Shown: positions 1-22,675 of the stretch, one piece after another
Layout of the letters: every line of letters begins with the position of its first letter
Position numbering within the stretch: position 1 is the stretch's first letter
Source of the DNA: Bdellovibrionota bacterium
GTDB taxonomy: Bacteria; Bdellovibrionota_C; UBA2361
Reading direction: 5' to 3'
Assembly: GCA_044352465.1 (NCBI GenBank)
Contig: JBILDU010000044.1
Coordinates: 1-22,675, forward strand
Length of the DNA: 22,675 nt
Position numbers and translations under genes: made by a program
Notes under the pieces: model-generated
What the model was told of the DNA's origin: nothing
Databases searched by the model: none
Seen by the model: only the letters and a program-made list of their open reading frames with translations

Positions 1-1156
1 CACGCAGATCCTCCGGAACCTTAAAGCGAACTAACTCGCCACCCCGCGCGAAGAGACTGTCGACCGAGTCGCACGTCCCTCCGTGGAGTACCGCATCGAC
101 CAGCTTCCCCGTGAGGGGCTGCCCACCAAGCGGATCGGGGACTACCTCGATGTGGACCGGGGTCTTTCTATAGAGATGCCCCGCCAGATCGCTGTAGACG
201 CTCGACACCATAAACACCTCGAGGACCCCGTCGGTCCGCTGCCGCTTCACATTCGTAATCGAAGTGAGGGTCGGGAAATGTCCCAGAAGAAGCTGCCCCC
301 CCTCGATCTCGTACAGCGGCTTCGTCCCCGCCTGCACCCCCTCGAGGATTCCTTGCAGGCGTTGCACCGTGGTGGCGACACCGCCCATATATCCGTCGAT
401 AGTCTGACCAGCCTCTCCAAGCGAACGCGAATCAACGAGCCCACCGAGGATCTGCACCCGTTCGATCGAGCGTCCTACGGCGACGAACGAACGCGCGGCA
501 TGCCCCGCGGCCTCGATCAATCGCTCCCCCGACTCCGCCCCACGAAAACCATCGGCGACGGCGAACGAGAGTCCGAACGAGTTAAAACCGACCTCAGCGG
601 CGCGACGAAATATCGAATCCAAACGGCGGGGATTGACGAGCGGCTCATCGGGCGACTGCCGCACCAGGATCTGCAACGTCGGCTGCCACTCCGCGGTCGG
701 CACACACCCCGCTTTGATAAGGCTCTCCAACGCACTTAACGTGCCAACGGTCACCACCTTCGGTTGGATGTCGCGCGCAAGGCCGATGACATCGGGGAGC
801 GGAGCTCCCGAGGTAACCGAAATCGCAGCTCGAGGAACACCCAGCACCTGCAACCGCTCCAGGTGCGCCACACCCGAAGTTGAGAACTCGACTCCCGCCC
901 GCTGAAGACGTTCAACCACGAGCGGATCCGATTCCGAGGAGAGATCGTGCACGAGCGCCACACCCGGAAGAAGATTGCGGAACACCGCGATCCGCTCCTC
1001 CACCTCTTTCCACCGCACAAATCGCAGGGAGCCACACCCTTCGCCCCGGTCGCGCAGATACTGTATCTCTGGCTCGAAGTCCCGCGCCTCACGGGGAGGC
1101 AGCGCTGCGGAATCCGTAAGGTTGAGCGGGTCGCGTTTTTCCGGGTTAAGGCTCAT
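1..1156 (-). CDS. Fold-type III PLP (ornithine/DAP/arginine decarboxylase family) protein, apparently catalytically degenerate; partial, 3' end runs off the window
   Basis: Manual translation from ATG at 1156 (in-frame TAA just upstream) is open to the window edge (385 codons): MSLNPEKRDPL...RNLLPGVALVHDLSSESDPLVVERL...FSTSGVAHLERLQVLGVPRAAI...GLSFAVADG...VQILGGL...YEIEGGQLL...VFMVSSVYSDL...VLHGGTCDSVDSL. Motif order and spacing match ODC (LPRVTPFYAVKCN, FDCAS..E..LV..LGVP, GVSFHVGSG, LDIGGGF, EPGRY, DGVYGS, GPTCDGLD). Not in the supplied ORF track. Confidence 0.8.
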   Translation of the reverse strand, partial: MSLNPEKRDPLNLTDSAALPPREARDFEPEIQYLRDRGEGCGSLRFVRWKEVEERIAVFRNLLPGVALVHDLSSESDPLVVERLQRAGVEFSTSGVAHLERLQVLGVPRAAISVTSGAPLPDVIGLARDIQPKVVTVGTLSALESLIKAGCVPTAEWQPTLQILVRQSPDEPLVNPRRLDSIFRRAAEVGFNSFGLSFAVADGFRGAESGERLIEAAGHAARSFVAVGRSIERVQILGGLVDSRSLGEAGQTIDGYMGGVATTVQRLQGILEGVQAGTKPLYEIEGGQLLLGHFPTLTSITNVKRQRTDGVLEVFMVSSVYSDLAGHLYRKTPVHIEVVPDPLGGQPLTGKLVDAVLHGGTCDSVDSLFARGGELVRFKVPEDLR

Positions 1157-1391
1157 TCGAATTGCTCGTCCGAGGATAAACTTTTAATCCGTGGGGAAGT
1201 CAGCTTCTAATTGAAAAACATCCGGTGCTCTTGTATCCCGTTCGCTCCACTAAGGCGGAGAGGGTCCCGTATCTGCGGACTCATGGACCGACTGGATGGT
1301 ACCCCCTTTAGCGACTTCTACTCAAATAGCCAGGGAGGCCGATTTCCCCTGAATTGCGGGGATTATTCCTCATGAAAAACACCCAGTCTCC

Positions 1392-1418
1392 TCAATCGCC
1401 CACGCAACACCCCGAATA
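1392..1418 (+). promoter_or_regulatory. Possible sigma28-like promoter for the Ser/Thr kinase
   Basis: TCAA-N15-CCCGAATA versus consensus TAAA-N15-GCCGATAA; several mismatches. Confidence 0.25.
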
Positions 1419-1534
1419 TAAACCTTTTTCCCGACCCCCGGGAGGAGCCGCGCCGCCATCCCCCCTGCTGTTACATAGGATCAGCCGTTGTGGTAAAAAA
1501 CCAGGGGCTACTTTAGCGGCGCTTTAGAGCTATC

Positions 1535-4483
1535 GTGCCGGACGTCGTCTTCGTTACTATGCAACCACTCGGTCAATCTCCGAACGATCAATCCCCTCAT
1601 CGGGGCGACACTCCCGGCGGTGGGACAGGAAATCCACATCCGCAGGGTCCACCTCCGCCGTCACCACCACAAGATAACCCCCTCCTCTCCCTCGACGGAG
1701 TGAACTCGCTCGATCTCCGGGCTCACGACTTCGACCGCTCACTCAGCCCCGATTCGCAGAGTAGGAGTGGTCGCCAAGCTCGCCCCCCCCTCTCGCGAGA
1801 GGTCCCCGATATCATCGCCGACCTTGGAAACACCGAGAGGATTCGGAGCCAGTTTACTATCGAGTCCCTCCGCCCCCTCGGTAGTGGCGGCATGGGGGTC
1901 GTCGTGAGCGGCTTCGATCCGACCCTCAATCGTACCCAAGCGATTAAGGTACTCACCGCGAATCCCTCCCCGGAGGCGGTCGAGCGTTTTCGGGGCGAAG
2001 CTGCGCTCATCGCCGCGCTGAGCCACCCGAACCTCGTGAAGATCTACTCGTATGGAGTTTCGAACGAGGGCCGCCCGTTCTTCGTCATGGACCGCGTGGA
2101 ACAGGCGCGCACCCTCGATGCCGTGACCGAGAGCTACTTCGACGCGGCGGTCACCGATCCAACCACGGTCGAGTGGCGCAGCCGCGACCACCAGCTCGTA
2201 CGCTACTTCCTCGAGACGGTCCGGGCAGTCGAGCACCTCCACTCGCGCGGCATCATCCACCACGACTTAAAGCCCTCGAATATTCTGATATCGACCGAAA
2301 AGGCCCCCGCCGCTGACGGCTCCCCCGCAGAGCAACGCCGGGTCTTCGTCACCGACTTCGGATTAAGCACCTCGACCGATCTTACGAGCGCGCCCGCGGC
2401 TGGAAGCTCCCCCGCCGAAGCGCCCGGCTTTCGGGGAACCGTCGCCTACGCCGCGCCGGAGCAACTCCCCGGCCGTGGCCCGGTGACCCCCCGCACCGAT
2501 GTCTATCAGCTAGGTCTTATTTTGCGTCAGATCGTGCTGAACGAGGCTCCCTTTGAAACGGTCGGTGTCTCATCGGGGCGTGAGATCTTAAAGCGGCTTG
2601 GGGAGGCCCGCGATCCCGTTGCGCTCTACGGCGACCCACTCGCTACAAATCCCGCCCTCCCCCGCGAGCTTGTGGCGATCATTCACAAAGCTATCGCGGT
2701 CGATCCAGCGACCCGCTACGCAACCGCCGGCGAACTTCGCGCCGACCTCGAGGCGTTCCTCGACGGCCGATGGGTAGCAGGATTAGCCACCACCCTGCCG
2801 CTGAAAGACAAAGTTCCGTACGGACTCGACGTCACCCGCCGCACGATCGGTCGGTGGATCGGCGCAAACAAGGTGCTTGCGGCGGTGCTCGCCCTCACCG
2901 CAGCGGGAGGGGTCGGGGGCACAAAGTACCTCCTCGACCGGGAGAGCCAAGCTGCCACCGCGAAGCTTAACGAGGAGCGAGAGAAAGCGGAGCGCGCGCA
3001 GATTACCCTACTCACCGAACAAGCCCGCCAACGGGTGGCGGAGGCGCTTCCCCTGACCCGACAACTCGCCGACGCCGGGAACCTCCCCGCGGCGGTGGCG
3101 CTCGTACAGCCCGAGGTGGTGGCCGAGCTTCGAAGAAACGCCCACGGTGATAAAGAGATCCTCGACTCTCTCCAGGTCCTCGAGCGTGAAACCGCAGAGC
3201 GACGCTTGATCCTCGAACTACGAAAACTCGAGCTCAAAGCGTACGCCTCCGCCTTCGATGAGACCGGCCCCGCGATCCTGGGCAAATTCGACCTCGAAGC
3301 GCTCCGCGCCGCACGGGCGGTGTACCTCCCCGATGGACTCACCCCCGCCGGGATCGAAAAGTTCAAAAACTGGATGGAGGAGGTGCACTACACCCCGCGC
3401 CAACGCCGCGAGCTTATGGAGCGGCTTACCCAGCTCAGTATGATTATTATGTCGGTAGAAGGAGGTCGGGTCCCGTGGTCCGCCACTCTCACCCCCGAGG
3501 TTCGTGCGGCGAATAGAGCCACCTGCGACTCGATTCAGGCGGTCGCCGAGGGATGTCGGGTGCGTTCGGTGGAGTTGGAGGAGGGATTCGCGGCACCGAT
3601 GACTATCCACCGGGTCAAGTTCTTGATCGAGCGGGCGGAGAATCCAGATATTCCTAATCGTAGCCCGAATACCGCGATGCTCGGGTGCGACGAGTCGCTA
3701 TCGATGTTCTTCAACCTCTTCGGTCGAACGTACCCGCTCACCGAGGCTCAGATCGCCAAAGCTCTCCCCTATGCGGAGTCGGCACGGAACGCCAACAAAG
3801 ATTCCTTTCTCGATCACATCGTTTTTGCGCGACTAAGCCTCCTCGTAGAGGGGGAGCCTCCCAAGGAGCGCCTGAAGCGGCAAACCACCTCACTCGAATC
3901 GCTTCTCGTAGCTTTTGAGCAACTGAAGATCGCCGGGATAGACGATCATGCCGTTGTGCTTGAGATAATGAATCTCTCCACCGCCACGAACAAGTTATCG
4001 CTTAGCGTTCCCGCAACCGAGCGGCCCTTAGCGCGCGATACAGCTATCAAGGTGAGGGAGATTATAGGCTCCGATGGGAGGATTCGCGAAACTCCAGAGG
4101 GTCAACTCGCTCTTGGATTTCTGCTCGCGCGTGAGATGGTCGGTTCCGATTCGACCGAAGAGATGACCCGCGCGCTCCGCTCGATTCCTGCTTTCGCTGA
4201 GGACGCGATCTTCCTATCGGTGATGAATCGGATACGCCTCGATCACGTTCTCGACCGGGACGATGCGAAGCACCTCCTCGAGTCGGGGATTGAGGAACGT
4301 GCTCCCCTCCTCACCGTTCAATTGCTGTCCGAGCTAGGTCGTGTTGACGAGGCGATAGCTCTCCTCGAGAAGATAGACCAAGCTGACTCCGGGTGGGGAG
4401 AACACCTGAGAGCTCGCCCCTCAGCGCTACTCTCCCTTAGAAGAGCCTATCCCGACCGCTTCGAGCGGGTCATCGCTCCTTAA
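1535..4483 (+). CDS. Hanks-type (eukaryotic-like) Ser/Thr protein kinase with a predicted single TM helix and a long helical C-terminal region (start may be ATG 1559)
   Basis: Gly loop LGSGGMGVV, AIK lysine, alphaC Glu (RFRGEA), HPNLV, catalytic loop HHDLKPSN, DFG, GTVAYAAPEQ, DVYQLG, RY. Hydrophobic stretch VLAAVLALTAAGGVGG follows the kinase domain. Pro-rich disordered N-terminus. Confidence 0.93.
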   Translation: MPDVVFVTMQPLGQSPNDQSPHRGDTPGGGTGNPHPQGPPPPSPPQDNPLLSLDGVNSLDLRAHDFDRSLSPDSQSRSGRQARPPLSREVPDIIADLGNTERIRSQFTIESLRPLGSGGMGVVVSGFDPTLNRTQAIKVLTANPSPEAVERFRGEAALIAALSHPNLVKIYSYGVSNEGRPFFVMDRVEQARTLDAVTESYFDAAVTDPTTVEWRSRDHQLVRYFLETVRAVEHLHSRGIIHHDLKPSNILISTEKAPAADGSPAEQRRVFVTDFGLSTSTDLTSAPAAGSSPAEAPGFRGTVAYAAPEQLPGRGPVTPRTDVYQLGLILRQIVLNEAPFETVGVSSGREILKRLGEARDPVALYGDPLATNPALPRELVAIIHKAIAVDPATRYATAGELRADLEAFLDGRWVAGLATTLPLKDKVPYGLDVTRRTIGRWIGANKVLAAVLALTAAGGVGGTKYLLDRESQAATAKLNEEREKAERAQITLLTEQARQRVAEALPLTRQLADAGNLPAAVALVQPEVVAELRRNAHGDKEILDSLQVLERETAERRLILELRKLELKAYASAFDETGPAILGKFDLEALRAARAVYLPDGLTPAGIEKFKNWMEEVHYTPRQRRELMERLTQLSMIIMSVEGGRVPWSATLTPEVRAANRATCDSIQAVAEGCRVRSVELEEGFAAPMTIHRVKFLIERAENPDIPNRSPNTAMLGCDESLSMFFNLFGRTYPLTEAQIAKALPYAESARNANKDSFLDHIVFARLSLLVEGEPPKERLKRQTTSLESLLVAFEQLKIAGIDDHAVVLEIMNLSTATNKLSLSVPATERPLARDTAIKVREIIGSDGRIRETPEGQLALGFLLAREMVGSDSTEEMTRALRSIPAFAEDAIFLSVMNRIRLDHVLDRDDAKHLLESGIEERAPLLTVQLLSELGRVDEAIALLEKIDQADSGWGEHLRARPSALLSLRRAYPDRFERVIAP

Positions 4484-4942: not shown

Positions 4943-5956
4943 CTACATCTCGGGCATTTCACCGGGGGTCGTCTCCTCCCCGCGGTCGAGCCAGAAGGTA
5001 CGGCTCTTCGACTCCACCATAACCCGGACGTTACTTAAGAGCTGCTCGACCTCACCCCGACTGAGCCCGATCTGGTCCTCACCGAGTAGGGCCGGGGGCT
5101 TCGCCGAGCGATACACCGAGTCGATCCAGACCGCCGCCGCGCGAAGATGCGCCGCCCGCTGGTCCACCGCCCCCCGTAATCGACCGGGCGAGAGCCCCGT
5201 CACCAGCGCTATCGGCAGGGCACTTCCGTGGCCCATCCGTTGGAGAAACAGCGCCGCGACCTGGGCGTGCGAAAAACCCCAATTCGTAAGTTCGTATCCG
5301 ACATCGAACGAGAGTTGCCGGGCCCGGAGGTGTTCGTGGTACGGACGAAACCCCGCCGGATCACGAAACGCCAGATAACCGAGCGCCAGCGAGCGGAGAC
5401 TCCCCACGAGGAGCCCCGCGGCTCCACCCAATCCAGGCAGGCTAGTTCCGAGGTAATACCCGATATCCCCCCGGTGATGGGCGAGCTCCACGAACCCGCG
5501 CCACTGGGGGTTGTCTCCCGCGATACGGCTCACCCGTCGGTAAAAATAGAGGACCGAGAGGAACGCCGAGCACACCTCGAAATCCAAGATCTCGGTGAGC
5601 TCTCGGGGGGTCGGCGGCCGGCCGGTGGGAAGGCGTCCTGAATACAAGTTATTGGCTAGACGGGTCAGCCCGGAACGGAGGGAGGGGGTGCGAAGAAACT
5701 GGGCTACCACCCGATCCTTCACTCCTTTAAGCCGGAGGTCGTCTCCATGGGGGAGATTAAGTAACCTCACATAACCGCTCAGGGGGGAGAAACTTGGCCT
5801 CAGCTCATCGATAACTACAGCCGCGGAGCCCCAACCATCCGATTCCGTCGCGGAGGGGACTTCTACGGCTATGGCATTCGAATTACTCACACGCCGTTTG
5901 TATTCCGAGCAGCCTCCTTTGGCAAGTAAACCGATATTTGAGGCATGCCATACCAC
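4943..5956 (-). CDS. HDOD-like signal transduction protein (true start possibly downstream, e.g. GTG 5890)
   Basis: RLANN helix near the N-terminus, AAGLLVGSLRSLALGYL (position of GLLHDIG, HD residues absent), ELTNWGFSHAQVAALFLQRMG (E..xG.xH..vg..l...w pattern of HDOD domains). Confidence 0.6.
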   Translation of the reverse strand: MVWHASNIGLLAKGGCSEYKRRVSNSNAIAVEVPSATESDGWGSAAVVIDELRPSFSPLSGYVRLLNLPHGDDLRLKGVKDRVVAQFLRTPSLRSGLTRLANNLYSGRLPTGRPPTPRELTEILDFEVCSAFLSVLYFYRRVSRIAGDNPQWRGFVELAHHRGDIGYYLGTSLPGLGGAAGLLVGSLRSLALGYLAFRDPAGFRPYHEHLRARQLSFDVGYELTNWGFSHAQVAALFLQRMGHGSALPIALVTGLSPGRLRGAVDQRAAHLRAAAVWIDSVYRSAKPPALLGEDQIGLSRGEVEQLLSNVRVMVESKSRTFWLDRGEETTPGEMPEM

Positions 5957-6017
5957 TGTTCGAGCGAAAGGGGTGTGTAGCTATGTCGCCGTTATAGGGT
6001 GTTTTCGTTCGGTTTGT

Positions 6018-6048
6018 TTGACTAAGCCGCTGAAAGGAGGAGTATAGT
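6018..6048 (+). promoter_or_regulatory. Possible sigma70-type promoter for the transporter gene
   Basis: TTGACT-N19-TATAGT; spacer longer than optimal. Confidence 0.3.
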
Positions 6049-6091
6049 CGGGCAGGTTTTCGCTCGGACACCTAACAAAAGGAGCCTATCC

Positions 6092-6478
6092 ATGGATTTT
6101 CGAGCAATCATTTTTTCGGTAGCGGTCGCGCTGCTCTACGTCCTCGCCAACGTGCTCACCGAACGGAGCCTTGCTCCCGGTAAAGCACACCTGATGGCGT
6201 GGGTCAGCGCACTCGCCGTTGTGGCGTTCTTCGGGTTTCGGTTCGTCTGTCAGCACTACGGGCTGGCGGTGGCCTCGGCGGTAGTCGACTCGTTGTTGAC
6301 CCTGCTGACCGTGGCCTACGCTGTCTTCGTGCTCAAGGACCGGTTGTCGACGGTGCAGTACGTCGGCGTCTTCCTCCTTCTGGCTGGACTCTTCCTGGTG
6401 AAGGGACCGTGGTCAGGAGGCTCCTCTGAGGCCCAACCTGCTAAAAACGATGCAGGTCAGGTCTCGGAGCAGAAATAA
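6092..6478 (+). CDS. SMR/DMT-superfamily small 4-TM membrane transporter
   Basis: SD AAAGGAG. Four hydrophobic helices. GLAVASAVVDSL (cf. SMR PLGVAYAIWSG) and LKDRLSTVQYVGVFLLLAGLFLV (cf. FGE.LS..Q.LGI.LII.GV). Confidence 0.7.
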   Translation: MDFRAIIFSVAVALLYVLANVLTERSLAPGKAHLMAWVSALAVVAFFGFRFVCQHYGLAVASAVVDSLLTLLTVAYAVFVLKDRLSTVQYVGVFLLLAGLFLVKGPWSGGSSEAQPAKNDAGQVSEQK

Positions 6479-6573
6479 AGGGGGGCGAGAAGGTGCAACC
6501 CTCGGGCGGGTGAGACCTTTCTTTGAAAAGGCCTCCCCCCCGCTTTTTCCCTCGCTTTGATAAGGAGTGTGAG

Positions 6574-7413
6574 ATGTCCCCACAGCAGTTCGATAACGGT
6601 CGTCGCCCAAACGTTGATACGCAACAAACGCAATCGCAAGATTACAACGCACTCACGAATTTTACCCGTTTCTATCTCGATACCTACTATAAAGTCGCCC
6701 CAACGATCGATGAGGTCGCCATTAATCGATTCATCATTAAAGAGCTACGCGGGCTCGGTCGCCGCTTCGAAAACTGCGTTGAGATCAGCGGCGAAGGGGG
6801 GATTCACCATCTCATTCCGATCGCCCCATGGGTCGATCGGCTTCATTCGACCGATTTTCGTGAGGAGGCGCGGGAAGAGACCCGCAAGTGGGCACTCGGA
6901 ACCGCAGATGCCTTTTCATGGGATCATTATGTGGCGATGTCGCTTCGCCACGAGGGTCTCGATCCAAGCGAAGAAGCGGTTGAGGACCGAGTTGCGGAGA
7001 TACGGAATAAGATCGAGCGAATCGAAGGGTGTAACGTCCTTAACCGCCCGATAGTCGAGCTCGAGAAAATACCGCTTACCCCTGGCACATTAACCGTGAT
7101 GTTTTTCGTCTCCGGAGAGGTCGGTGAAACCGTTGAGGGGTGGCAAAAAGTCATGGAGAACTTTTGCGGTTCCATCGCCCCAGGTGGTCACGTGATCATC
7201 ACGGCGCTCCGTGGAATGAGGGAGTACGCGGTGCACCGCCCCGACGGGACTACCGATACCTACCCCTGCGCAGAGCTTTACGGCGACCATTTCCGTAAGC
7301 TCCTTCCAACCCTTGGATTTCCAAACCCGACGGTAGAGGAGTTCGAGATCGCGGAGCCCGACGTCGGGCTGAACGGAATCATCATGATTTCCGCAAACAA
7401 ATCGGAGGGTTAA
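6574..7413 (+). CDS. NNMT/PNMT/TEMT-family SAM-dependent methyltransferase
   Basis: SD TAAGGAG before ATG 6574 (preferred over TTG 6523). Colinear with NNMT motifs: YLDTYY (YLEKYY), STDFREEAREETRKW (VTDYSDQNLQELEKW), AFSWDHYV...HEG (AFDWSPVV...LEG), CNV (CDV), NFCGSIAPGGHVII (NLGSLLKPGGFLVI). Confidence 0.8.
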   Translation: MSPQQFDNGRRPNVDTQQTQSQDYNALTNFTRFYLDTYYKVAPTIDEVAINRFIIKELRGLGRRFENCVEISGEGGIHHLIPIAPWVDRLHSTDFREEAREETRKWALGTADAFSWDHYVAMSLRHEGLDPSEEAVEDRVAEIRNKIERIEGCNVLNRPIVELEKIPLTPGTLTVMFFVSGEVGETVEGWQKVMENFCGSIAPGGHVIITALRGMREYAVHRPDGTTDTYPCAELYGDHFRKLLPTLGFPNPTVEEFEIAEPDVGLNGIIMISANKSEG

Positions 7414-7494
7414 GACTGCCCGAGCCCGCTAAGATCGCGCTTTAGCGAAGCGCCCGTTCTGACGAATTCCCCGGGGGATTCACGGGAGAGGGCT

Positions 7495-10400
7495 ATGAAA
7501 GTCAGAACGAAGGTTGTTTCGGGTCTTTTCGTCTCGATTGCGGTGCTGTGCATCGGGCTCGTCGGGCTCGTCCAGACTGTCGTTGTCGACAGCTTTAAAA
7601 AGATCGAACTCGAGCGTTTTGAGCGAAACGTAAGTCGGGTTCAAAACGCCCTCGCCACCCAACTCGAGGTTCTCCTGAAACAAGTGGTCGATTGGGGCCA
7701 GTGGGATAACACCTACGAATTCGTCGCTGATAAAAATCCGGCTTATATCGACGAAAACCTCAACTTCATGACTCTATCGGCGCTCGGGCTGCGCGACGTC
7801 CTCTACTTCGGAAGCACCGACGAGCTTCTTCAAAGCGCTCACGTCGTTAACGCCGATCGAACGGTCGGACCAACACCGGCGGATGCGGTGGCGCTCCTCA
7901 AACAGATCATGCTCACCGAACGGGAGAAGGGAAACAAAGAAGGTTCAGGCCTCGTGCAGATCAACGGGGAGACGGCGCTCTACGCTTTTACCGAGATCCT
8001 TCCGAGTAAGCGCGATGCGGCGGGCCGCGGTACGATCCTCGCGACCTCGCTCGTCACCAACACTCTATTCAAAACATGGGCGTATCAGACAAATCTCCCG
8101 CTCCGGTTCTGGCGCTTCAGTCAGGAGACCCCCTCATCCCAAGCATCGCTCGCGCTCCATAGACTTGAGCGAGGCGAGCCGTTCGTCCATCTACCAACGG
8201 AGCGCGGGGGCTCGGCGATTTTCGGACTTATCCGTGACGTCGCCGGGAAGCCGGCGCTCCTCTTCGAGTTCGAAGACGACGCAGTCGTGACCCACCTTGC
8301 CGAACAGGTGCGTAACGGGGCGCTCCTCGGAGTCGCCGTCGCCGGGCTCCTGGCACTCGTGCTTCTCTGGTGGCTGATCGACCGACAGCTCTTGAGTCGA
8401 CTATCAACCCTCTCGGTGACCGTGCAAACGATCGCCGCTACCGGAGACTCAAACCTTCGGCTCACGGATTCAGCTTCGTATCAACGCTCACTTCAAACCC
8501 GGGTGCTCGCCACCGTGGCGAGCTGCTTCGTCTTGATGGGTGGAGCGCTATGGATATTTTTCGAGCACTCCCTCACCGACGCTTTTGAGGAGGTCGAGCA
8601 GAAGAATCTCGCCGATAACGTCACCCGAGCTGAACGAGCTCTGAACGCCCGAGCTCAAGAACTTCTTGGCAAAACAGCCGACTGGGGCCAGTGGGACGCC
8701 ACCTACGAGTTCGCCGAAAAGCGGAATAGCGACTACATCGAGGCGAACCTGAATTATGAAACGCTCAGCGCACTCGGTATGAGGGCCGTCGCGTTCTTTT
8801 CCCCCCAAGGCACACTGCTCTACGGGCGTGAGGTCTCCCCGCAATCTGCGACAACCTTTGATCTGACTCCTCAACTCGCGGATATCTTGTTCGACGGTGT
8901 AGGAGCCATTCGCCGCGGGGAGTCTACCACGCTCGAGGCTGGCTTACTACGCGGGCCCGACGGTGTTATCATGGTAACGCGCAGCCCGATCCTTGATAGC
9001 GCCCGCTCTAAGCCGTCACGGGGATCGTTCGTATTCGTACTACCGGTCGACCAACGGTTGATCGATGAGCTCAGTCGCCAAACAAAGCTTGCGATATCGG
9101 TCTACCCGAACGATCCGAATCATGCGCTCCCACCGCTCCTCGAGGTTGTTGACCGGGAGAACATCATCGGGCGTGCCCCCCTTACCGGCCTCGATGCCCA
9201 CCACGTTGGGATGATTCAGATTCTGTTACGTCGGCACGTCCACCTTGAAGGGCTCGCCGCGCGGCAGAACCTCCTTCTCGCCCTGGTGTTGTTAAGCATC
9301 TTCGGTACAGTCCTAGCCGCAGTCATCGTGCATCGCGTTATTATCGCTGCACTAGCCGCCTCGGTTGATCAGGTCGGCGACATTTCGCGTACTCGTGACA
9401 CCTCACGTCGTCTCTCCGTCTCGGGGAGCGACGAGCTCGGGGTGCTCGCCGAGCAGATAAACTCGATGCTCGATTCGCTCGCCCGCGCGCAGGAAGACCT
9501 CCAACTTGCCCGCGACGGTGCCGAGGCAGCGAACCGGGCCAAATCGACTTTTATCGCCAAGGTCTCCCATGAGTTGCGGACGCCGATCCACGGCATCGTG
9601 GGCATGTTGCGCATCTTGATGAAAGAGGAGACCTCGAAGACGAAGCGTTCATACATCGCGATGGCGAAGAACTCAGCGTTTGGACTTCTCGATACCATCA
9701 ACGAGATCCTCGATTTTTCAAAGATGGAGACCGGCAACCTCTCCCTTGAGCAGATAGAGTTTCGATTACGCGACGTCGTGCGGGACGCTCTCCGCACCGT
9801 GGCTCCCCGAGCTGAAGATAAGGGTTCGGTTGAGCTGGTGTATGACATCATGCCGGGAGTGCCCGACCTCTTCCGGGGAGATCCACTCCGGGTCAAGCAG
9901 TGCCTTATTAACCTTCTCGGAAACGCCATAAAATTCACCCAACAAGGGTTCGTGAAACTCACGGTAAGCTCGGCTGGACGCTCAGGAGAGGCGCATCAAC
10001 TCGTTCTTGCGGTCACCGACACCGGAGTCGGCATTCCAGCCGATCGTCTTCCCCGCATCTTCGATCCGTTTACTCAGGCCGATGACTCGGTCGCACGCGT
10101 CTTCTCCGGTACCGGTCTTGGACTCACGATCGTCAAGCAACTCGCCGAGCAGATGAACGGTAGCATCGAAGTGTCAAGTGAGATTGGTACAGGAACGGAG
10201 TTCACCTTACGGCTTCTCCTCTCCGAACTGCCTGATACCGAATGGCGTGAACCGGAGATCGACATCGCTCCCCGCAAGATGCTCATCGTCGATGGGGACT
10301 CCCACGCGGTGAAACTTATGGACTCAAGCGCCGGTCGGTACAACCTCCAAAGCACAGTTATCAACTCGCGGGATCCGCAGTCCCTGGCCGAAGTGCGAAC

Positions 10401-11649
10401 ACGTCTGACCGATTACGGCTTGTGTGTCGTCACCTCGGACGCGATCCGACGATCGCATGTTTTCAATTTGATGGTGGATCTCGCCCGTGAAAAGCGGATT
10501 CCGGTTGTTGTGGTCGTTCCTTCCCACGATATCTCCCTCCGGGAACGGCTTACCGCCTCGGGTATCTCGTATGTGCTCATGCGCCCGCTCTCATTTGAAG
10601 ATATCTTGCTAGGCATCTCTGGACGTCTGCCTTTAGATGAAAGTGCCTGGAACGGTGACGATGAGGCTTCGCTTCGGGTAGGCCGCCCTCTACGGGTCCT
10701 CATAGCGGATGACGCCGAAACGAATCGAATCATCCTTTCGAGTATGCTCGAGGAAGCCGGACACGAGGTCACCTGTGTTGAAAACGGGCTCGATCTCCTT
10801 GCGGCGATGAAGCGTCAGTTCGATGGCTCGGCACGGATACCGAATTTCGATATCGTGCTCACCGACGTGCAGATGCCGCTGATGGATGGACTCACCGCCA
10901 CACGGGAGATCCGCTCACTTGAAGAGGCAACCGGACAGGCTCACCGCATTCCAGTTATCGCCGTTACTGCCCACGCCATGAACGAAGAGATCGAGCGGAT
11001 GCGCGGATGCGGGGTCGATGACGTCGTCACGAAACCGATCCATCCGAGCGAGCTCGCACGGGTTCTGAGTACCCACGGGGGGAGCGTCGGCAACACATCG
11101 GATGAGCCCGTAGCGGAGGACCAGAGCGCCCCGGCACCGGGGGCAAAAATCCCCCGCGAGGTTCAAGAGCTTCACTCAACGGCGCTGCGGGTGTGGCACG
11201 AACTGTGCTCAGAGGAGACTCTCACCGCATTTGGTGGGGCGAGCGGCGGGCTCCCCTTCGCTCAAATACTCGACCTTGCGGACGTATTCCTCCGTTCTGG
11301 GGATTCGGTGCGACGGACGAAGCTGATTCTCCGCGCATTCGGCACTTCGTATGAGGATCCGCTGACGGCGCTCAACCGGGCGAAATCGGCGAGTGACATC
11401 GAAGGATTGAAATACGCCGGTCATGCGCTCAAGGGGCTCCTTCTCGACGTTGGAGCAGCCACCTCGGCTAAGATCGCCTCAACTATCGAGGCGAAGTGTA
11501 AAGAGGGGCGATTCGCAGAAGGAGCCGAGCTCGTAGCGCCCCTGACAGACCAGGTGCGCACGCTGGCGCGACTCCTCTCAGGGATCTGTGCGAGCGACAA
11601 CGCCACGATGCCGCAAAGTGCTCCGTCTGAAGCCGCCCCGCTCGCATGA
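7495..11649 (+). CDS. Hybrid sensor histidine kinase: 2x CHASE4-like sensor, HAMP, HisKA, HATPase_c, degenerate receiver, receiver, Hpt
   Basis: DWGQWD.TYEF...N..YI..NL motif twice. HAMP (SDELGVLAEQINSMLDSL). H box SHELRTP, N box NLLGNAIKFT, G1 DTGVGI, F IFDPFTQAD, G2 GTGLGL. REC (ADD, TDVQMPLMDG, VTA, KP). Hpt AGHALKG. Confidence 0.95.
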   Translation: MKVRTKVVSGLFVSIAVLCIGLVGLVQTVVVDSFKKIELERFERNVSRVQNALATQLEVLLKQVVDWGQWDNTYEFVADKNPAYIDENLNFMTLSALGLRDVLYFGSTDELLQSAHVVNADRTVGPTPADAVALLKQIMLTEREKGNKEGSGLVQINGETALYAFTEILPSKRDAAGRGTILATSLVTNTLFKTWAYQTNLPLRFWRFSQETPSSQASLALHRLERGEPFVHLPTERGGSAIFGLIRDVAGKPALLFEFEDDAVVTHLAEQVRNGALLGVAVAGLLALVLLWWLIDRQLLSRLSTLSVTVQTIAATGDSNLRLTDSASYQRSLQTRVLATVASCFVLMGGALWIFFEHSLTDAFEEVEQKNLADNVTRAERALNARAQELLGKTADWGQWDATYEFAEKRNSDYIEANLNYETLSALGMRAVAFFSPQGTLLYGREVSPQSATTFDLTPQLADILFDGVGAIRRGESTTLEAGLLRGPDGVIMVTRSPILDSARSKPSRGSFVFVLPVDQRLIDELSRQTKLAISVYPNDPNHALPPLLEVVDRENIIGRAPLTGLDAHHVGMIQILLRRHVHLEGLAARQNLLLALVLLSIFGTVLAAVIVHRVIIAALAASVDQVGDISRTRDTSRRLSVSGSDELGVLAEQINSMLDSLARAQEDLQLARDGAEAANRAKSTFIAKVSHELRTPIHGIVGMLRILMKEETSKTKRSYIAMAKNSAFGLLDTINEILDFSKMETGNLSLEQIEFRLRDVVRDALRTVAPRAEDKGSVELVYDIMPGVPDLFRGDPLRVKQCLINLLGNAIKFTQQGFVKLTVSSAGRSGEAHQLVLAVTDTGVGIPADRLPRIFDPFTQADDSVARVFSGTGLGLTIVKQLAEQMNGSIEVSSEIGTGTEFTLRLLLSELPDTEWREPEIDIAPRKMLIVDGDSHAVKLMDSSAGRYNLQSTVINSRDPQSLAEVRTRLTDYGLCVVTSDAIRRSHVFNLMVDLAREKRIPVVVVVPSHDISLRERLTASGISYVLMRPLSFEDILLGISGRLPLDESAWNGDDEASLRVGRPLRVLIADDAETNRIILSSMLEEAGHEVTCVENGLDLLAAMKRQFDGSARIPNFDIVLTDVQMPLMDGLTATREIRSLEEATGQAHRIPVIAVTAHAMNEEIERMRGCGVDDVVTKPIHPSELARVLSTHGGSVGNTSDEPVAEDQSAPAPGAKIPREVQELHSTALRVWHELCSEETLTAFGGASGGLPFAQILDLADVFLRSGDSVRRTKLILRAFGTSYEDPLTALNRAKSASDIEGLKYAGHALKGLLLDVGAATSAKIASTIEAKCKEGRFAEGAELVAPLTDQVRTLARLLSGICASDNATMPQSAPSEAAPLA

Positions 11650-11767
11650 TCGGCGAGCGGCTTTATAGGGAGGAACGAAGTTTATCTCCGCGCTCTTGCC
11701 GACGAGCTCGTCCGCCGTCTCAGAGGATCTCGCGGAAGGAGGAAAAGATTTTCGGATCGGTGTGCTC

Positions 11768-11809
11768 GTGACTTTTTCAGAAAGTTTTTTCACTTTCTGA
11801 AGGAGTCAC
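11768..11809. repeat. Strong inverted repeat/hairpin containing a copy of the GTGAAAAAACTT motif
   Basis: GTGACTTTTTCAGAAAGT-TTTTTC-ACTTTCTGAAGGAGTCAC: 18-bp stem with two G-T pairs. 11782-11793 is the reverse complement of GTGAAAAAACTT. No flanking U tract. Confidence 0.7.
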
Positions 11810-11955
11810 TAATCCGACCAGGGCGGGCCGGGCAGCCGCCGTAGGTCCGCTGTGGCGGCTGGAGCGACGCGCAGGAAAGGCTGGCTTTCGGCCTTTTCGA
11901 AGCTTGGAGCGTGCTTTCCGGAGGATGTCCGTGGGAACGCAGATAAAAAACCGGG

Positions 11956-12120
11956 GCGCCTTTCACGCTGCCTGGTGAAAAAACTTATTGGAAGGCGCAC
12001 TAGTGGTTCGACCATTAAATTCTTTCACCTGCAAGGTAATAGAATTTATGCTCACCACTAGTCCTGAGTTAGTTTTTCACTCCGCGGGAGTGAAAAAACT
12101 TATTGGTCGAAGGACTAGTG
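11956..12120. repeat. Array of three related imperfect palindromic units separated by ACTAGT
   Basis: ACTAGT at 11999, 12057 and 12114 (spacing 58 and 57). Exact 17-bp direct repeat GTGAAAAAACTTATTGG at 11975 and 12090. Each unit folds back on itself. Confidence 0.8.
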
Positions 12121-12576
12121 ACTACACAGCTTGCGGAATTCCTTCTTACTCTCAGAGAAGAGATACTCACGGCACACGTCGGAGAGCTCGTGGAGCGCGG
12201 AGACCTCATCGAGAAGCTCTCCAAGCTTGGTCTCAGCGATCGCCATCAACTCGCTCACCTCGGCACCAGGAGCGGACCCCGGTCGAAGGATGGAGGTGAA
12301 GACGCGATAGCCTTTAAGCCCAAACGCAGCTTCCAAAGCGCCAAAAAGCTCACACGCCTCCTCGGCGTCGAGCTCACGCCCGTCGTCCCATTTCGGCGGG
12401 GCTTCGATGTAGAAGAGGACCCCGCGTTCTCCTGCGGCCGTCCGGCCGAATTGGCACCAGAGAGTATAATGCAGCGACTCATCACAGAGGGTAACTTGAT
12501 AGCGGAATAGCCCAGCGGGTTGGACGCGAATCCGCCCGCCGATTTCAACTACCGCCTCTTCAACGATCCGCGACAT
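12115..12576 (-). CDS. Hypothetical protein (153 aa), weak resemblance to Imm74-type immunity proteins
   Basis: ATG 12576 with SD-like GAGGA and an upstream sigma28-type promoter, which argues against the GTG 12627 start. Segment FYIEAPPKWDDGRELDAEEACELFGALEAAFGLKGYRV recalls the Imm74 pattern by eye only. Confidence 0.6.
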   Translation of the reverse strand: MSRIVEEAVVEIGGRIRVQPAGLFRYQVTLCDESLHYTLWCQFGRTAAGERGVLFYIEAPPKWDDGRELDAEEACELFGALEAAFGLKGYRVFTSILRPGSAPGAEVSELMAIAETKLGELLDEVSALHELSDVCREYLFSESKKEFRKLCSH

Positions 12577-12617
12577 CTCATCCTCACTATAGCGGCTAAC
12601 GCCTGCTTTCCCGTGAG

Positions 12618-12644
12618 AGATCGGCACACGGGGGACAAACTTGA
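12618..12644 (-). promoter_or_regulatory. sigma28 (FliA)-type promoter
   Basis: Minus strand TCAAGTTT-N11-GCCGATCT, close to extended consensus TAAAGTTT-N11-GCCGATAA, about 40 nt upstream of ATG 12576. Confidence 0.65.
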
Positions 12645-12974
12645 GAGCGCCCGGGACTTAATTTAGGGACGAGCTCTTAGTTTTTCTCCGCCTCAGGAGA
12701 GACACATCGATCCCCGAGGCGTAACTTTTCACCGCATTCATCCAGGTTGACTGCAGAAGAGGAGAGTAATCTCGAGATGCTGCGCCCCACACGCGCTAAC
12801 CATCCGGCATAACTAGCTTTTGTCGATCGCGCCGCCTGACGTCGCGGCGTATCTGGAGCAGGTGCGAATATCCTTGAGCTCTACCGCTGGAGTGTCGATA
12901 TCGGGGACGAGGGTTGCGTCTCGCGGCAACGGTTACAGCACCCAAAGTTACCGTATATTTTTGGATACACCATC

Positions 12975-13376
12975 ATGGAAGATATCGCCCTTTCAGAGCT
13001 TCAACAGAGCGTTCTTATCATCGACGACGTGCCCTCAGCCCGGTTGATGCTCGCCGATATGCTCCATGAGCTTGGCTTCGCCGAGTGTCTTGAGGCTCGC
13101 AACGGACTCGAAGCGCTTGATGTTTTAAGTCAGCGCCCCGTTCGACTGATTTTTTGCGATCTTATGATGGAGGGGATGAACGGCATCGATTTCCTGCAGG
13201 CTCTGAAATCCCGAGACATTCCGAGCGTTCCCCCAATTATCTTCGTGAGCTCTCACGGCGACCTCGACAGCTTCGACGGTGCCCTCGGCCTTGGCGCGAG
13301 CGATTACATCGTCAAACCGGTCAATTTCAATAAACTACGCCGAAAAGTCGAGAGCGCCCTCAAGAAAGAGGTCTAA
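12975..13376 (+). CDS. Single-domain response regulator (CheY-like receiver)
   Basis: VLIIDD, phosphoacceptor in FCDLMMEGMNG, FVSS, DYIVKP; no output domain. Confidence 0.92.
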   Translation: MEDIALSELQQSVLIIDDVPSARLMLADMLHELGFAECLEARNGLEALDVLSQRPVRLIFCDLMMEGMNGIDFLQALKSRDIPSVPPIIFVSSHGDLDSFDGALGLGASDYIVKPVNFNKLRRKVESALKKEV

Positions 13377-13558
13377 AAACGCACGCCGCTCTGCGCTTGC
13401 ACCGCTCACAAACGGGACTTCGTCAAAAGCTCTGCCCGCGCGAATCGACCTGCCCTCGGTGTCGTTTCCATGAAATGGGTTTCCTACCACCGCGCGGTCC
13501 TGAGTCGTGTCCTTCCTCTGAGGGACGTCAAAAGAGTCTTCCCCCCTGCTCGAGCGCT

Positions 13559-13585
13559 TAAGAAATTAAAGGATCCAGCCGAGTA
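13559..13585 (+). promoter_or_regulatory. Possible sigma28-type promoter for the second receiver gene
   Basis: TAAG-N15-GCCGAGTA, about 120 nt upstream of ATG 13704. Confidence 0.4.
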
Positions 13586-13703
13586 AAGGATAGCACGGTG
13601 AAAAACCGCGCTTAGGTTTCGTGTGCGCGGATGTCGCACGATGAAACTGGAGGGGCCGGAACGGGAAGCAAACCGGCTTTAAACCAAGGGGAAGGGTGTC
13701 ATT

Positions 13704-14111
13704 ATGGTAATGAATGAAGAAGAGAAGGTTCTGGTTGTAGACGACCTCATGTCTACCCGACTTCTTATCGTCGACATGCTCCGGGAGATGGGGTTTACCT
13801 CCGTCGTTGAGGCAACCGATGGCGCGGAAGCACTTTCAAAGGTTCACCAAGGGAAGCCCTCCCTGATGGTGTGCGACTACGTCATGAAAGGGATGTCAGG
13901 GGTCGACCTTGTGCGCGAGCTCAGAAAAGATCCCGAATTCAAAGATGTCAAAGTGATCATGTTGAGCAACAATCGAGACGTCCCACTTATCGACGCAGCG
14001 ATCGAAGCCGGTGCAGACGACTACATCGTGAAACCGGTGAGTTTCAATATCCTTAAACGACGGATCCAAGACGTCCTTACCCGAGCAAAGGACTCTCCGG
14101 TTGAGGGATAG
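13704..14111 (+). CDS. Single-domain response regulator (CheY-like receiver)
   Basis: VLVVDD, VCDYVMKGMSG, MLSN, DYIVKP; no output domain. Confidence 0.92.
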   Translation: MVMNEEEKVLVVDDLMSTRLLIVDMLREMGFTSVVEATDGAEALSKVHQGKPSLMVCDYVMKGMSGVDLVRELRKDPEFKDVKVIMLSNNRDVPLIDAAIEAGADDYIVKPVSFNILKRRIQDVLTRAKDSPVEG

Positions 14112-14162: not shown

Positions 14163-16220
14163 TTATCCGCGGATATGCGCCAACCGGGCGTCGGCCGCGG
14201 CATTGATGCGCCGCGCGGCGCTGCGGTAATCAACTTTGATCGTTTCGCAGTACCACCGAAAAGAATCAACCCGCGGGCGATTCTCCTCAAGCATAATCTC
14301 AATAGCCTGATCACGGGTAATCTGTCCCTCGCGCACCTGATTGCTGCGAAATGCATCTACCTCGGAAAGCCCGGCGAGGGACAGATAGGCGTAATTGTAG
14401 AAACTCGCGGTCCCATCACCGATTCGCCACGTCGATGTCGTATCTTGAGCAACCTCCCAATCGTAAAGCGACCGAATCGTCCGGTTCACCTCGTGCTCAT
14501 CCCAAGGGTAATAGTCAAAAAACTGTAGATAGCGGTGAGGGAAAACATAATAGGACGCGAAGCCGAATAACGTATCGAACCAAGAGCGATTGATCAGCCC
14601 GGGGTTACCCAGCATCTCTTTCCCATAAAAGCCCAATAACTTGAGCTTGCTACCCCATGAAAGCTCGAAGTGAGTTGCGGCTTTGTTATGGGCAAAAACA
14701 CCGGCAAATCCGGTCTTAAAATGGGTGGTTTCGAGCCGATTCATACCGAAGATAAGATGTTGCGCTCCGGTATCTCGGGCAGCTTGGTTCGCGTAAAAGA
14801 AAAACTGCTTGTCCCCAGCCATGAAAAGCGGAATCGTACCGGGATGTGGCCGATCCAACCACGCCTCAACATTTCGTCGAATGTTGTCACGTTTACGCCG
14901 AATATCAGCCGACACAAGGATGTGCTCCACTCCGAGCATTGAAACGAGTCGTGACATATTCCGACGAGCGAGGTCGGTAACCATTCCCCAATCATAGGTG
15001 AACGCAACGACATCGAGCCCGAGCACACGTTTCATGTGATGCAAGATAAAGCAGCTATCCCGTCCACCACTCAACGCGACGAGACACTTGCCTGGCTTGC
15101 CTGTGGGGGATTCGTGCGCCAGCGCGTCCAAAAATGCGCTGATACCATGCCGAACAAAGGGGCGATAACTTAGACAGACGCTACAGACGCCGGCGGAATC
15201 GAAGGTAATTCCGGGAAAGGAGGCGGGGAGGATACACCGTGAACATCGGCGCACCGCAAGTAATTTATCCGGGCTGAACCTCAGCGACTCATCCGCACAA
15301 CCTTCCACCGCGGGAAGGGGCTTGGAGCAACGGGGCTGCGGCTTCAACTTCCCGGGTTCTCGATCAACCACCACGGCGCCCGGAAACGGGCCGCCCGCCG
15401 AATCACGCTCACCGGGTGGAGCAGACCAGAGAGTGCTCCCAGCTCCCCGGCTCAACACGTCAACGGACTCGACCTCGACGCCGCGACTCTGCAATGCGAT
15501 CAAGGCTTCGCCCGGCTTCAACTGGCAAATCAACGCTCCATCAGGTCGGCACGGTGAATTGGGAGATTCAACCATCTTCACTACCATGCTCCGCTCAGAG
15601 GCGAATATGAGCACATCGGCATCGGCATCGTGGCAGTAGTATAAGGAACCGTTATTAGTGAAGAGGACCAGTCCCGGAAGAGCACCGTGGGCGAAAGCTA
15701 CGCACGCCTGCCCACGCAGTTTGGGATACACGCCTGATACGACCTGGCCAATCGTTTCCCCACCGGCGAGACCAGCGTCAAGAAGGCGCGCGATCACCTC
15801 GCTATCAAGATCGGATTCATGCGGAAAGACTTCGCGATGTTCCGCACGGAGCTCGGGTGCATTGACGATAATTCCATTGTGGATAAGCGCTGAGGATGGG
15901 GTAACTACCGGTTGATTGTTTTCGTGAAGCTCCTCGGTGCCATTGGTCGTCAGGCGGGAGTGGCCCATAAAAGCGAGGAGATGCGCTTGGTCGTTCTGCA
16001 CCTCCTGCATCAACTCGCGATACTCCCTCGTTCGAACGAAGGTGCGAACTCGCAAAGGACGCTTAAGCACATCGATTCGCTCGGAGCGAACCGTCGCGAC
16101 ACCTGAGGCGTCCTGACCACGTCGCTCGGCGAGCTGCAGCGCCGTTCGCACGAACGGCTCAAGACACCAGTCTGCATCTTCAAGTGGCCGGAGAAACACC
16201 CCCCCGAATATTCCACACAT
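14163..16220 (-). CDS. Class II (Ntn) glutamine amidotransferase fused to an N-acetyl-sugar amidotransferase (WbpG/WbuX/PseA-like PP-loop domain)
   Basis: Start reassigned to ATG 16220 (MCGIFG; SD GGGAG) so that Cys is the N-terminal nucleophile. GATase motifs RRGQDASG, GHSRLTTNG, NNQP, HNGIIVN, DSEV. C-terminal half has CSRCILP...CSVC, LSGGRDS and QVREGQITRDQA. Confidence 0.85.
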   Translation of the reverse strand: MCGIFGGVFLRPLEDADWCLEPFVRTALQLAERRGQDASGVATVRSERIDVLKRPLRVRTFVRTREYRELMQEVQNDQAHLLAFMGHSRLTTNGTEELHENNQPVVTPSSALIHNGIIVNAPELRAEHREVFPHESDLDSEVIARLLDAGLAGGETIGQVVSGVYPKLRGQACVAFAHGALPGLVLFTNNGSLYYCHDADADVLIFASERSMVVKMVESPNSPCRPDGALICQLKPGEALIALQSRGVEVESVDVLSRGAGSTLWSAPPGERDSAGGPFPGAVVVDREPGKLKPQPRCSKPLPAVEGCADESLRFSPDKLLAVRRCSRCILPASFPGITFDSAGVCSVCLSYRPFVRHGISAFLDALAHESPTGKPGKCLVALSGGRDSCFILHHMKRVLGLDVVAFTYDWGMVTDLARRNMSRLVSMLGVEHILVSADIRRKRDNIRRNVEAWLDRPHPGTIPLFMAGDKQFFFYANQAARDTGAQHLIFGMNRLETTHFKTGFAGVFAHNKAATHFELSWGSKLKLLGFYGKEMLGNPGLINRSWFDTLFGFASYYVFPHRYLQFFDYYPWDEHEVNRTIRSLYDWEVAQDTTSTWRIGDGTASFYNYAYLSLAGLSEVDAFRSNQVREGQITRDQAIEIMLEENRPRVDSFRWYCETIKVDYRSAARRINAAADARLAHIRG

Positions 16221-16402
16221 ACGAGTCTCCCTACGGCTCCGCCCAAAAATTCCCCTGCTACCTCCGGGTCGACGCACTTTTTCGGCGGAGTCGAAACTCT
16301 CCCGAAGAAAAACATGCGGAACCACTATCTGTGAGCCTTGCCTATCCTGACACAAGGCATCATGTCATTATAAAATGTGGTCCTCAAGAGGAGCGGTCGA
16401 TC

Positions 16403-18508: not shown

Positions 18509-18516
18509 ACCGGTCC

Positions 18517-20223: not shown

Positions 20224-20277
20224 TCAGTTTCTCCTCCTCCGCGGGGCGACGATTGACGCTATCAAAATCATTCAGGA

Positions 20278-21240: not shown

Positions 21241-21244
21241 GACA

Positions 21245-22180: not shown

Positions 22181-22296
22181 AACAGCTGAAAAAATAGGCA
22201 CCGATAGTTGATCCGCCCCTTCCTGGGAGAGGCGCGCATCGCAAAATCCCGGCACGAGCCTCGATTTAATTTTGTTACGCCGTGTAAGTCAATCAT

Positions 22297-22675
22297 TCAG
22301 ACCCGCACCGACATACGGAGGCGCGTCAAAACGACGAGAAGGAGGGCTTCCGCTGCGAATGAAGCTGCGGCAGCTAACGCGCAACCGACCAGACCCAACG
22401 CCGGGGCCAGGAGCAGCGCTAGCATACCATTCACGGCGAGAGCCGCCAAAGTCATAACGGTGTATGTACCGGGGAATCCTCCCTGAAGGAGGAGCCCTCC
22501 GAAGGGGCGAAACCACGCGGACACAGAGATCGCCCCGGCCAGGATACCGTAAACCCAGACGCTTTCCCCGTAGCTCGGATCGGCTACGAGAAGCGGGAGG
22601 ATCGCCGCATATACGAGCGTTGAGACCGCCCCCAGTCCTAGCATCAGCGGAAAGAAGAGCTTCCGGGTTCGCTGC
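22297..22675 (-). CDS. C-terminal fragment of a polysaccharide flippase-like (Wzx/MATE-type) membrane protein; partial
   Basis: Frame stays open to the window edge (..QRTRKLFFPLMLGLG..). Ends with NGMLALLLAPALGLVGCALAAAASF, matching the N..l...lip..G..GaA.a pattern of flippase C-termini. Confidence 0.7.
   Translation of the reverse strand, partial: QRTRKLFFPLMLGLGAVSTLVYAAILPLLVADPSYGESVWVYGILAGAISVSAWFRPFGGLLLQGGFPGTYTVMTLAALAVNGMLALLLAPALGLVGCALAAAASFAAEALLLVVLTRLRMSVRV

Follow-up and report, generated by a model that had tools for sequence, protein, structure and literature searches.

Enzymes of the ornithine decarboxylase (ODC) family, which depend on pyridoxal 5′-phosphate (PLP), are described in one report (PMC3253432) as obligate dimers with a shared active site: the two subunits pack head to tail, each site is built from the barrel of one subunit and a sheet-domain loop of the other, and Lys69 comes from one subunit and Cys360 from the other. 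Here, we describe what appears to be a single-chain counterpart of this arrangement in a 22,675-nucleotide (nt) stretch of DNA from a Bdellovibrionota bacterium (contig JBILDU010000044.1; "the window" below means this whole stretch). An open reading frame (ORF) at 2..1156 on the minus strand encodes an ODC-like module that has Ser in the place of the PLP-binding Lys. This ORF is the N-terminal module (N-module) of a longer protein whose C-terminal module (C-module) carries the missing Lys, and the whole chain is probably a pseudo-heterodimeric PLP decarboxylase of fold type III in which the two modules build a single composite site. Residues of ODC (K69, D88, H197, C360, etc.) are given in the numbering of the Trypanosoma brucei and mouse enzymes.

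The closest described systems are the homodimeric ornithine, lysine, and arginine decarboxylases of the alanine racemase fold (fold type III; Pfam PF02784 and PF00278), such as T. brucei and human ODC, the Vibrio vulnificus lysine/ornithine decarboxylase (L/ODC; PDB 2plj), the Selenomonas ruminantium lysine decarboxylase (LDC; PDB 5gjm), and the PBCV-1 arginine decarboxylase (ADC; PDB 2nva). Both modules of the window protein have the same barrel and beta-sheet fold as these enzymes (Z 25-27), and the site is likewise shared by two units, with the PLP side in the C-module and the Cys-Asp and Phe-Asn pairs in the N-module. Unlike the homodimers, the window protein is a fusion of ~950 amino acids (aa) in which each unit is half competent and one site is expected instead of two; it is also without the acid at the D332 position and reaches no NCBIfam equivalog cut-off.

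Engineered ODC heterodimers that combine a Lys69 mutant with a Cys360 mutant reportedly regain one site, an experiment of the 1990s. The division of labor would be the same in the window protein, which differs in being natural, ancient, and fixed by fusion and in having many more residues assigned to each side. The protein would be a natural and ancient version of the classic shared-active-site experiment, each fused half keeping what the other has lost. Antizyme inhibitor, an animal ODC homologue that binds antizyme and in this way regulates as a separate protein, resembles the N-module in having the ODC fold without decarboxylase activity of its own, and its structures (PDB 3btn and 4zgz) are among the PDB matches (E = 2e-8 with the N-module profile; Z 23.8 with the model). 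In contrast to antizyme inhibitor, the N-module is fused to a putatively active partner and appears to keep the catalytic residues of the partner side. Finally, two reports (PMC5201418 and PMC3663545) describe the prozymes of trypanosomatids, which are inactive paralogues of AdoMetDC and deoxyhypusine synthase and activate these enzymes. There, too, assembly or activation of the working enzyme depends on a dead copy; however, the prozymes have another fold, are separate polypeptides, and act allosterically or by completing an oligomer, whereas the dead copy in the window is fused and expected to donate catalytic residues. We found no published natural tandem or fused decarboxylase of the alanine racemase fold in open-access papers and bioRxiv, although a description in a subscription journal is possible.

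The ORF is the front part of a 948-residue protein

The ORF at 2..1156 (minus strand) encodes 385 aa, starts with an ATG at 1156, and has an open 3′ end, with no stop codon up to base 1 of the window. As the window (G000:C163:1-22675) begins at a contig end, where the ORF exits, the reading frame is cut off by the contig edge. The best match of the ORF in an exhaustive HMMER search, P0001 (948 aa), is identical to it across residues 1 to 385, and residues 388 to 948 of P0001 are encoded with 100% identity at the end of another contig of the same genome (G000:C162:51122-49440, minus strand). The two missing Gly codons fit between the ends of C163 and C162, where ~3 nt are unassembled, and the full-length 948-aa protein is present on four other contigs. 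Because the reading frame continues on C162 and the intact form exists elsewhere, the ORF is no stand-alone pseudoenzyme; it is an assembly-truncated view, comprising the front 41% of the gene, of a larger protein with two ODC-fold modules in tandem, of which the ORF (residues 1 to 385) represents the N-terminal pseudo-decarboxylase module. The initial annotation had read it as a hidden pseudoenzyme that acts on its own in regulation or in amine sensing, an idea that falls with the finding that it is the first 385 of 948 residues of a gene cut by the contig end. Its suggestion of an intact paralogue beyond the left edge was borne out in an unexpected form, with the intact copy fused in cis as the C-terminal half.

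The orthologous tandem gene in genome G103 is also split at two contig ends (the end of L048 and the start of L047; G103:C149 and G103:C136). The split lies at another position, near residue 250, and the two pieces share a four-residue overlap. On both strands of the window, ORFs of 65 to 218 aa (e.g., 83..739 on the plus strand) overlap 2..1156; these are most likely shadow frames in GC-rich coding DNA.

The N-module has an ODC fold and has lost the PLP-side residues

We compared the ORF with the PDB by a single-sequence HMMER search and with a profile of four N-modules, and with Pfam and NCBIfam. The PDB matches were significant with the single sequence (E = 4.3e-6) and stronger with the profile (E = 1.4e-15). 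When modeled with AlphaFold2 (AF2), residues 25 to 419 superimposed on residues 18 to 412 of human ODC (VIA Z 26; root mean square deviation [rmsd], 2.7 Å; 367 aligned residues), in agreement with the earlier proposal that this unlisted minus-strand ORF has an ODC fold. While profile and structure comparisons thus gave a clear answer, Pfam did not: PF02784 stayed below threshold for the ORF by itself (16.7 bits versus a cut-off of 23.4), and NCBIfam returned 0 families. A word-indexed homologue search with the 385-aa ORF gave no match at E ≤ 1e-3, as its length window excluded the 900-aa relatives.

The alignments place substitutions at PLP-side positions. Ser73 (codon tcc, 938..940, minus strand) takes the position of the Schiff-base Lys (ODC K69), pairing with the Lys of V. 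vulnificus L/ODC (2plj) in the single-sequence alignment and with that of PBCV-1 ADC (2nva) in the profile alignment. The PLP-stacking His (ODC H197) is replaced by Ala199 in the motif FAVAD (560..562, minus strand). The phosphate-binding GGG loop has degenerated to Leu237-Gly-Gly (440..448, minus strand) and the EPGR motif to Glu285-Gly-Gly-Gln (293..304, minus strand), with Arg changed to Gln. Two further positions, those of ODC D88 and E94, are occupied by Ser92 and His98. The motif GGTCDSVD is intact and matches GCTCDGVD of 2nva and GPTCDSVD of 2plj; it contains Cys362 (nt 73-71) and Asp363 (nt 70-68), the residues at 68..73 (minus strand) that ODC donates to the site of its partner subunit. 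Apart from Ser92 and His98, these substitutions, and the retained Cys-Asp pair, had been read correctly in the initial annotation. Together with the fold match, the loss of PLP-side residues indicates a catalytically dead unit of the ODC fold, as had been proposed.

The C-module has lost what the N-module keeps

The C-module comprises about residues 478 to 948 and is encoded on C162. Through this module, P0001 matches Orn_Arg_deC_N (PF02784) at residues 552 to 789, with 104 bits against the cut-off of 23.4, and every long relative has a canonical Orn_Arg_deC_N domain in its C-terminal half by Pfam. The C-module keeps the PLP-side set, i.e., Lys558, the Asp, Glu, and Arg, His696, the GGG loop, the EPGR motif, and Tyr891, and it has lost the Cys-Asp and Phe-Asn pairs. 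In an alignment made with the C-module profile, its sequence GSSNRPND pairs with GGPSCDGID of S. ruminantium LDC, so that Cys has become Asn856 and Asp has become Arg857.

To count these residues, 18 family members were cut into N- and C-modules; the module alignment also took in six single-module relatives, two kinase-fused modules, and three paralogues from the window's genome. The eight PLP-side columns were intact in 18/18 C-modules. Among the N-modules, the K69 column had Lys in 0/17 (Ser in nine and Ala in five; one row was truncated), D88 and E94 were each kept in 0/17, R154 and Y389 were each kept in 0/18, and few rows kept H197 (1/18), the first Gly of GGG (2/18), or R277 (4/18). The partner-side columns gave the opposite picture: C360 and D361 were present in 18/18 N-modules and 0/18 C-modules, and F397 and N398 were present in 18/18 N-modules and 3/18 C-modules. 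The eight single-module or kinase-fused relatives kept all of the counted residues. This complementary pattern held across all 18 members, at identities down to 21%. Only six N-module columns are invariant in the whole-protein alignment of the 18 sequences (Y321, C362, D363, P381, F404, and N405), and four of them are the partner-side residues C362, D363, F404, and N405. By these counts, the combination of the C-barrel with the N-loop is fully intact, and that of the N-barrel with the C-loop is dead on both sides. The initial annotation had seen in the retained Cys-Asp pair a hint of a half-site partner, and a candidate partner is now at hand, namely, a C-module that has the Lys and is without Cys-Asp.

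An AF2 model of all 948 residues, built on the 18-sequence family alignment, had a mean predicted local distance difference test (pLDDT) score of 88.7 and a predicted template modeling (pTM) score of 0.88. Residues 487 to 910 of the model resemble residues 1 to 372 of PBCV-1 ADC (Z 27; rmsd, 2.1 Å). The modules are joined by two long helices (residues 434 to 463 and 480 to 497) within a linker of about 45 to 65 residues. Given how pTM is defined, a chain of 948 residues should reach 0.88 only with a confident relative placement of both modules, and we therefore infer a fixed arrangement of the two in the model.

These observations suggest the following scheme. An ODC-like gene underwent tandem duplication and fusion. 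The C-module would bind PLP at Lys558 and supply every PLP-side residue, while the N-module, unable to bind PLP, would donate Cys362, Asp363, Phe404, and Asn405 from its beta-sheet domain. One composite site per chain would be left, the second site being dead on both sides. Head-to-tail packing inside one chain and catalytic activity are predictions of this scheme. The invariance of Asp363 suggests that the substrate is an amino acid whose side chain is cationic. If the scheme is correct, the family shows in clear form how two tandem copies can degenerate in complementary ways, and a pseudoenzyme module in bacteria can be essential to catalysis as one half of the site instead of acting as a regulator.

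Family, origin, and selection

The exhaustive HMMER search covered 1.84 billion representatives and returned 20 matches at E ≤ 1e-3, most of them 900 to 1,083 aa long and about 13 of them tandem forms. The 18 aligned relatives are all fused forms or fragments of fused forms. The search contained no stand-alone protein of ~400 aa without the Lys; the five single-module matches that were scanned (about 400 to 435 aa) all keep it.

In a maximum likelihood tree of the modules (47 rows, 433 columns; quick search under LG+G4), the N-modules form one clade and the C-modules form another, each with support of 99 in the Shimodaira-Hasegawa-like approximate likelihood ratio test (SH-aLRT), and matching subgroups recur inside both. 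Since the N- and C-modules each form one clade, the tree indicates a single old tandem duplication and fusion. The single-module proteins P0011 and P0014 are the sister group of the C-modules (SH-aLRT 95), and the kinase-fused modules of P0016 and P0017 group with P0020 in a larger clade of 41 rows (SH-aLRT 98). The deep branching order is unsure because of the long branches of P0007, P0009, P0012, and P0013.

End branches are longer for N-modules than for C-modules (0.41 and 0.21, respectively, for the window protein). Still, sequence comparison indicates that the N-module is under purifying selection and is not decaying. None of the 18 N-modules contains a stop codon, and between the G103 and G104 orthologues, the N-module (65% protein identity, compared with 61% for the C-module) has 0.27 nonsynonymous substitutions per site (dN) against a saturated synonymous value (dS) of ~2.3; the resulting dN/dS of about 0.12 is only rough, as dS is saturated in this sole pair compared at the DNA level. 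With no Lys in any of the 17 N-modules that could be counted and selection of this kind, the orthologues bear out the conserved loss that the initial annotation had proposed to look for.

With the N-module as the query, the gene was found in 5 of the 124 genomes of the window's GTDB phylum, i.e., the window's own genome and four genomes of one other family, and it was not found in the four genomes of the window's own family (78 to 93% complete). A locus search with P0001 as the query gave one locus, and those with P0005 and P0007 gave none. A metagenome scan with the C-module alignment returned 11 loci at 24 to 40% identity that look like single-module proteins of the L/ODC type, with no new tandem member identified among them.

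The automatic JGI names of the relatives are "diaminopimelate decarboxylase" or "ornithine decarboxylase." The former is unsupported, as P0001 scores 54.5 bits against the NCBIfam equivalog TIGR01048 (LysA, diaminopimelate decarboxylase), far below its cut-off of 297.9. Such labels are misleading here, and the dead half escapes the Pfam thresholds. No LysA equivalog was present among the PF02784 matches of the window's genome. The genome has a SpeA equivalog on C168 and, on C26, two adjacent fold-III paralogues of ~500 aa (L008 and L009) that fall below the NCBIfam equivalog cut-offs; these paralogues keep the PLP Lys and the Cys, but their D361 position is occupied by Ile or Val.

Alternative explanations

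Several points weigh against a single-chain decarboxylase with one composite site. In ODC, the acid at D332 helps to bind the distal amine of the substrate. At this position, 5/18 C-modules have D or E, the window protein has Ala, and the acid is absent from 13/18. The substrate pocket therefore differs from that of ODC, and activity on ornithine, lysine, or arginine is not to be assumed. The residues of the dead site (DLSSE and GSSNR) are conserved in the closest subfamily, which hints at an extra role that the composite site does not need. The family is small, and the alignments are consequently shallow. Finally, the residue pattern would fit pairing of an N-module with a C-module within a chain and between chains alike, and a single property of the model, its high pTM, is what suggests the fixed head-to-tail arrangement.

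The alternative that survives best is a domain-swapped homodimer, in which each chain would match its N-module with the C-module of the other chain, giving two composite sites per dimer. The complementary losses fit such a swap equally well, the helical linker could span a swapped or a closed arrangement, and ODC-family enzymes are obligate dimers according to PMC3253432. The pTM of the monomer model, by contrast, implies placement within the chain, and we regard the swap as unlikely.

It is also conceivable that the tandem protein is not an enzyme and serves as a PLP or amino acid sensor controlling the neighboring Ser/Thr kinase. The setting would suit a signaling protein, given the divergent kinase in 5/5 genomes, the nearby island, which encodes response regulators as well as a CHASE4 hybrid kinase and an HDOD-like protein, and the existence of fusions between ODC modules and kinases (all described below); the loss of the D332-position acid could be explained in the same way. 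Mere binding, however, would not be expected to keep a complete composite site, above all the proton-donor Cys, invariant in 18 members down to 21% identity, and this makes a noncatalytic role very unlikely.

Less probable still is a stand-alone regulatory pseudo-decarboxylase or amine sensor, or a heterodimer partner of a separate ODC paralogue, acting in the manner of antizyme inhibitor. An ORF that has Cys-Asp and no PLP Lys invites this idea, and four other fold-III decarboxylase genes in the genome could provide partners. For this gene, the idea is refuted by the missing stop codon at the contig edge and the continuation of the frame on C162, which fuse the ORF to an intact module in one 948-aa protein and so exclude a stand-alone pseudoenzyme of the antizyme inhibitor type; the relatives, all fused or fragmentary, and the lack of a ~400-aa protein without the Lys in the exhaustive search point the same way. 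That the ORF is a pseudogene in decay or arose by chance in GC-rich DNA, as the subthreshold Pfam score and the shadow ORFs on the opposite strand might suggest, is refuted by 18 N-modules without stops, the excess of dS over dN, the fold match at Z 26, and the invariant residues of the partner side.

The divergent Ser/Thr kinase

The decarboxylase-like gene is separated by 378 bp (1157..1534) from a divergently transcribed gene at 1535..4483 (plus strand), whose 982-aa product is a Ser/Thr protein kinase with a kinase domain, a predicted transmembrane segment, and a long helical C-terminal part. Rfam and promoter scans of the intergenic region gave neither a match nor a sigma-70-like site. 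In 5/5 genomes with a visible upstream side (the window's own, G104, G106, G085, and G103), the gene is divergent from that of a Ser/Thr kinase of about 930 to 980 aa, which is kept down to an N-module identity of only 26%. The relevance that had been attached to this neighbor at the outset is thus supported by its conservation. The genes downstream of the decarboxylase show no conservation between genomes.

Fusion proteins provide a second connection. P0016 (1,449 aa) consists of an intact single ODC module fused to a kinase that is homologous to the window's kinase (32% identity; E = 2e-50; 566 columns), with the similarity reaching past the kinase domain. P0017 and P0059 are further fusions of an ODC module with a kinase, P0059 being known from its domain listing alone. 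The modules of P0016 and P0017 belong to the same decarboxylase clade as the window protein but have both the Lys and Cys-Asp in one intact module fused to the kinase, whereas the window protein has duplicated decarboxylase modules, with the kinase encoded by a separate divergent gene. All three fusions are rare proteins of 1,400 to 1,450 aa, and P0017 contains TPR repeats. If their ODC modules dimerize as usual, they could dimerize the kinase.

Gene order and the fusions together suggest that this decarboxylase clade and the kinase are functionally connected, while showing neither the direction of the connection nor contact. From these two lines of evidence, the decarboxylase is probably wired to the divergent kinase, as its target or its input. 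A complex prediction for the N-module (residues 25 to 432) and the kinase domain (residues 95 to 440) scored 0.00, which is uninformative on binding either way. The pairing and the fusions in the clade point to an unstudied connection, in Bdellovibrionota-like bacteria, of Ser/Thr phosphorylation with the production of amines.

A more speculative idea concerns the second site, formed by the N-barrel and the C-sheet loop and dead on both sides. It might serve as a regulatory pocket or a phospho-acceptor surface that couples the decarboxylase to its partner kinase, as the subfamily keeps DLSSE, a Ser of which takes the place of the former Lys, together with LGG, E-G-G-Q, and GSSNR. We consider this possible but doubtful. 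Were it true, the protein would be a kinase-gated or kinase-gating amine-producing enzyme in an island of Ser/Thr kinase, HDOD-like, and CHASE4 two-component genes and a bacterial counterpart of the elaborate posttranslational control of eukaryotic ODC.

Genomic neighborhood

Beyond the kinase, a block of genes is shared by the window's genome, G104, and G106. It comprises a 337-aa protein (4943..5956, minus strand), a small EamA-like protein, and a CHASE4 hybrid histidine kinase (7495..11649, plus strand). The 337-aa protein is HDOD-like by ESM Atlas features and structure, which we treat as a lead only; neither this protein nor the two ORFs downstream of the decarboxylase on C162 had a Pfam match at E ≤ 1. 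A methyltransferase of the NNMT/PNMT type is part of the block in the window's genome and G104 but not in G106.

In the window, the island as a whole extends over 4943..14111 and contains the HDOD-like protein, the EamA-like protein (128 aa), the methyltransferase (NNMT/PNMT/TEMT type; 6523..7413), the CHASE4 kinase, and two single-domain response regulators. As a member of an amine N-methyltransferase family encoded near a decarboxylase, this methyltransferase may be a hint that the amine product is methylated. The remainder of the window (14163..22675, minus strand) encodes a GATase-domain protein, two large proteins without Pfam matches, a family 2 glycosyltransferase, and a methyltransferase; this block has the appearance of a cluster for polysaccharides or modification, with no relation to the decarboxylase.

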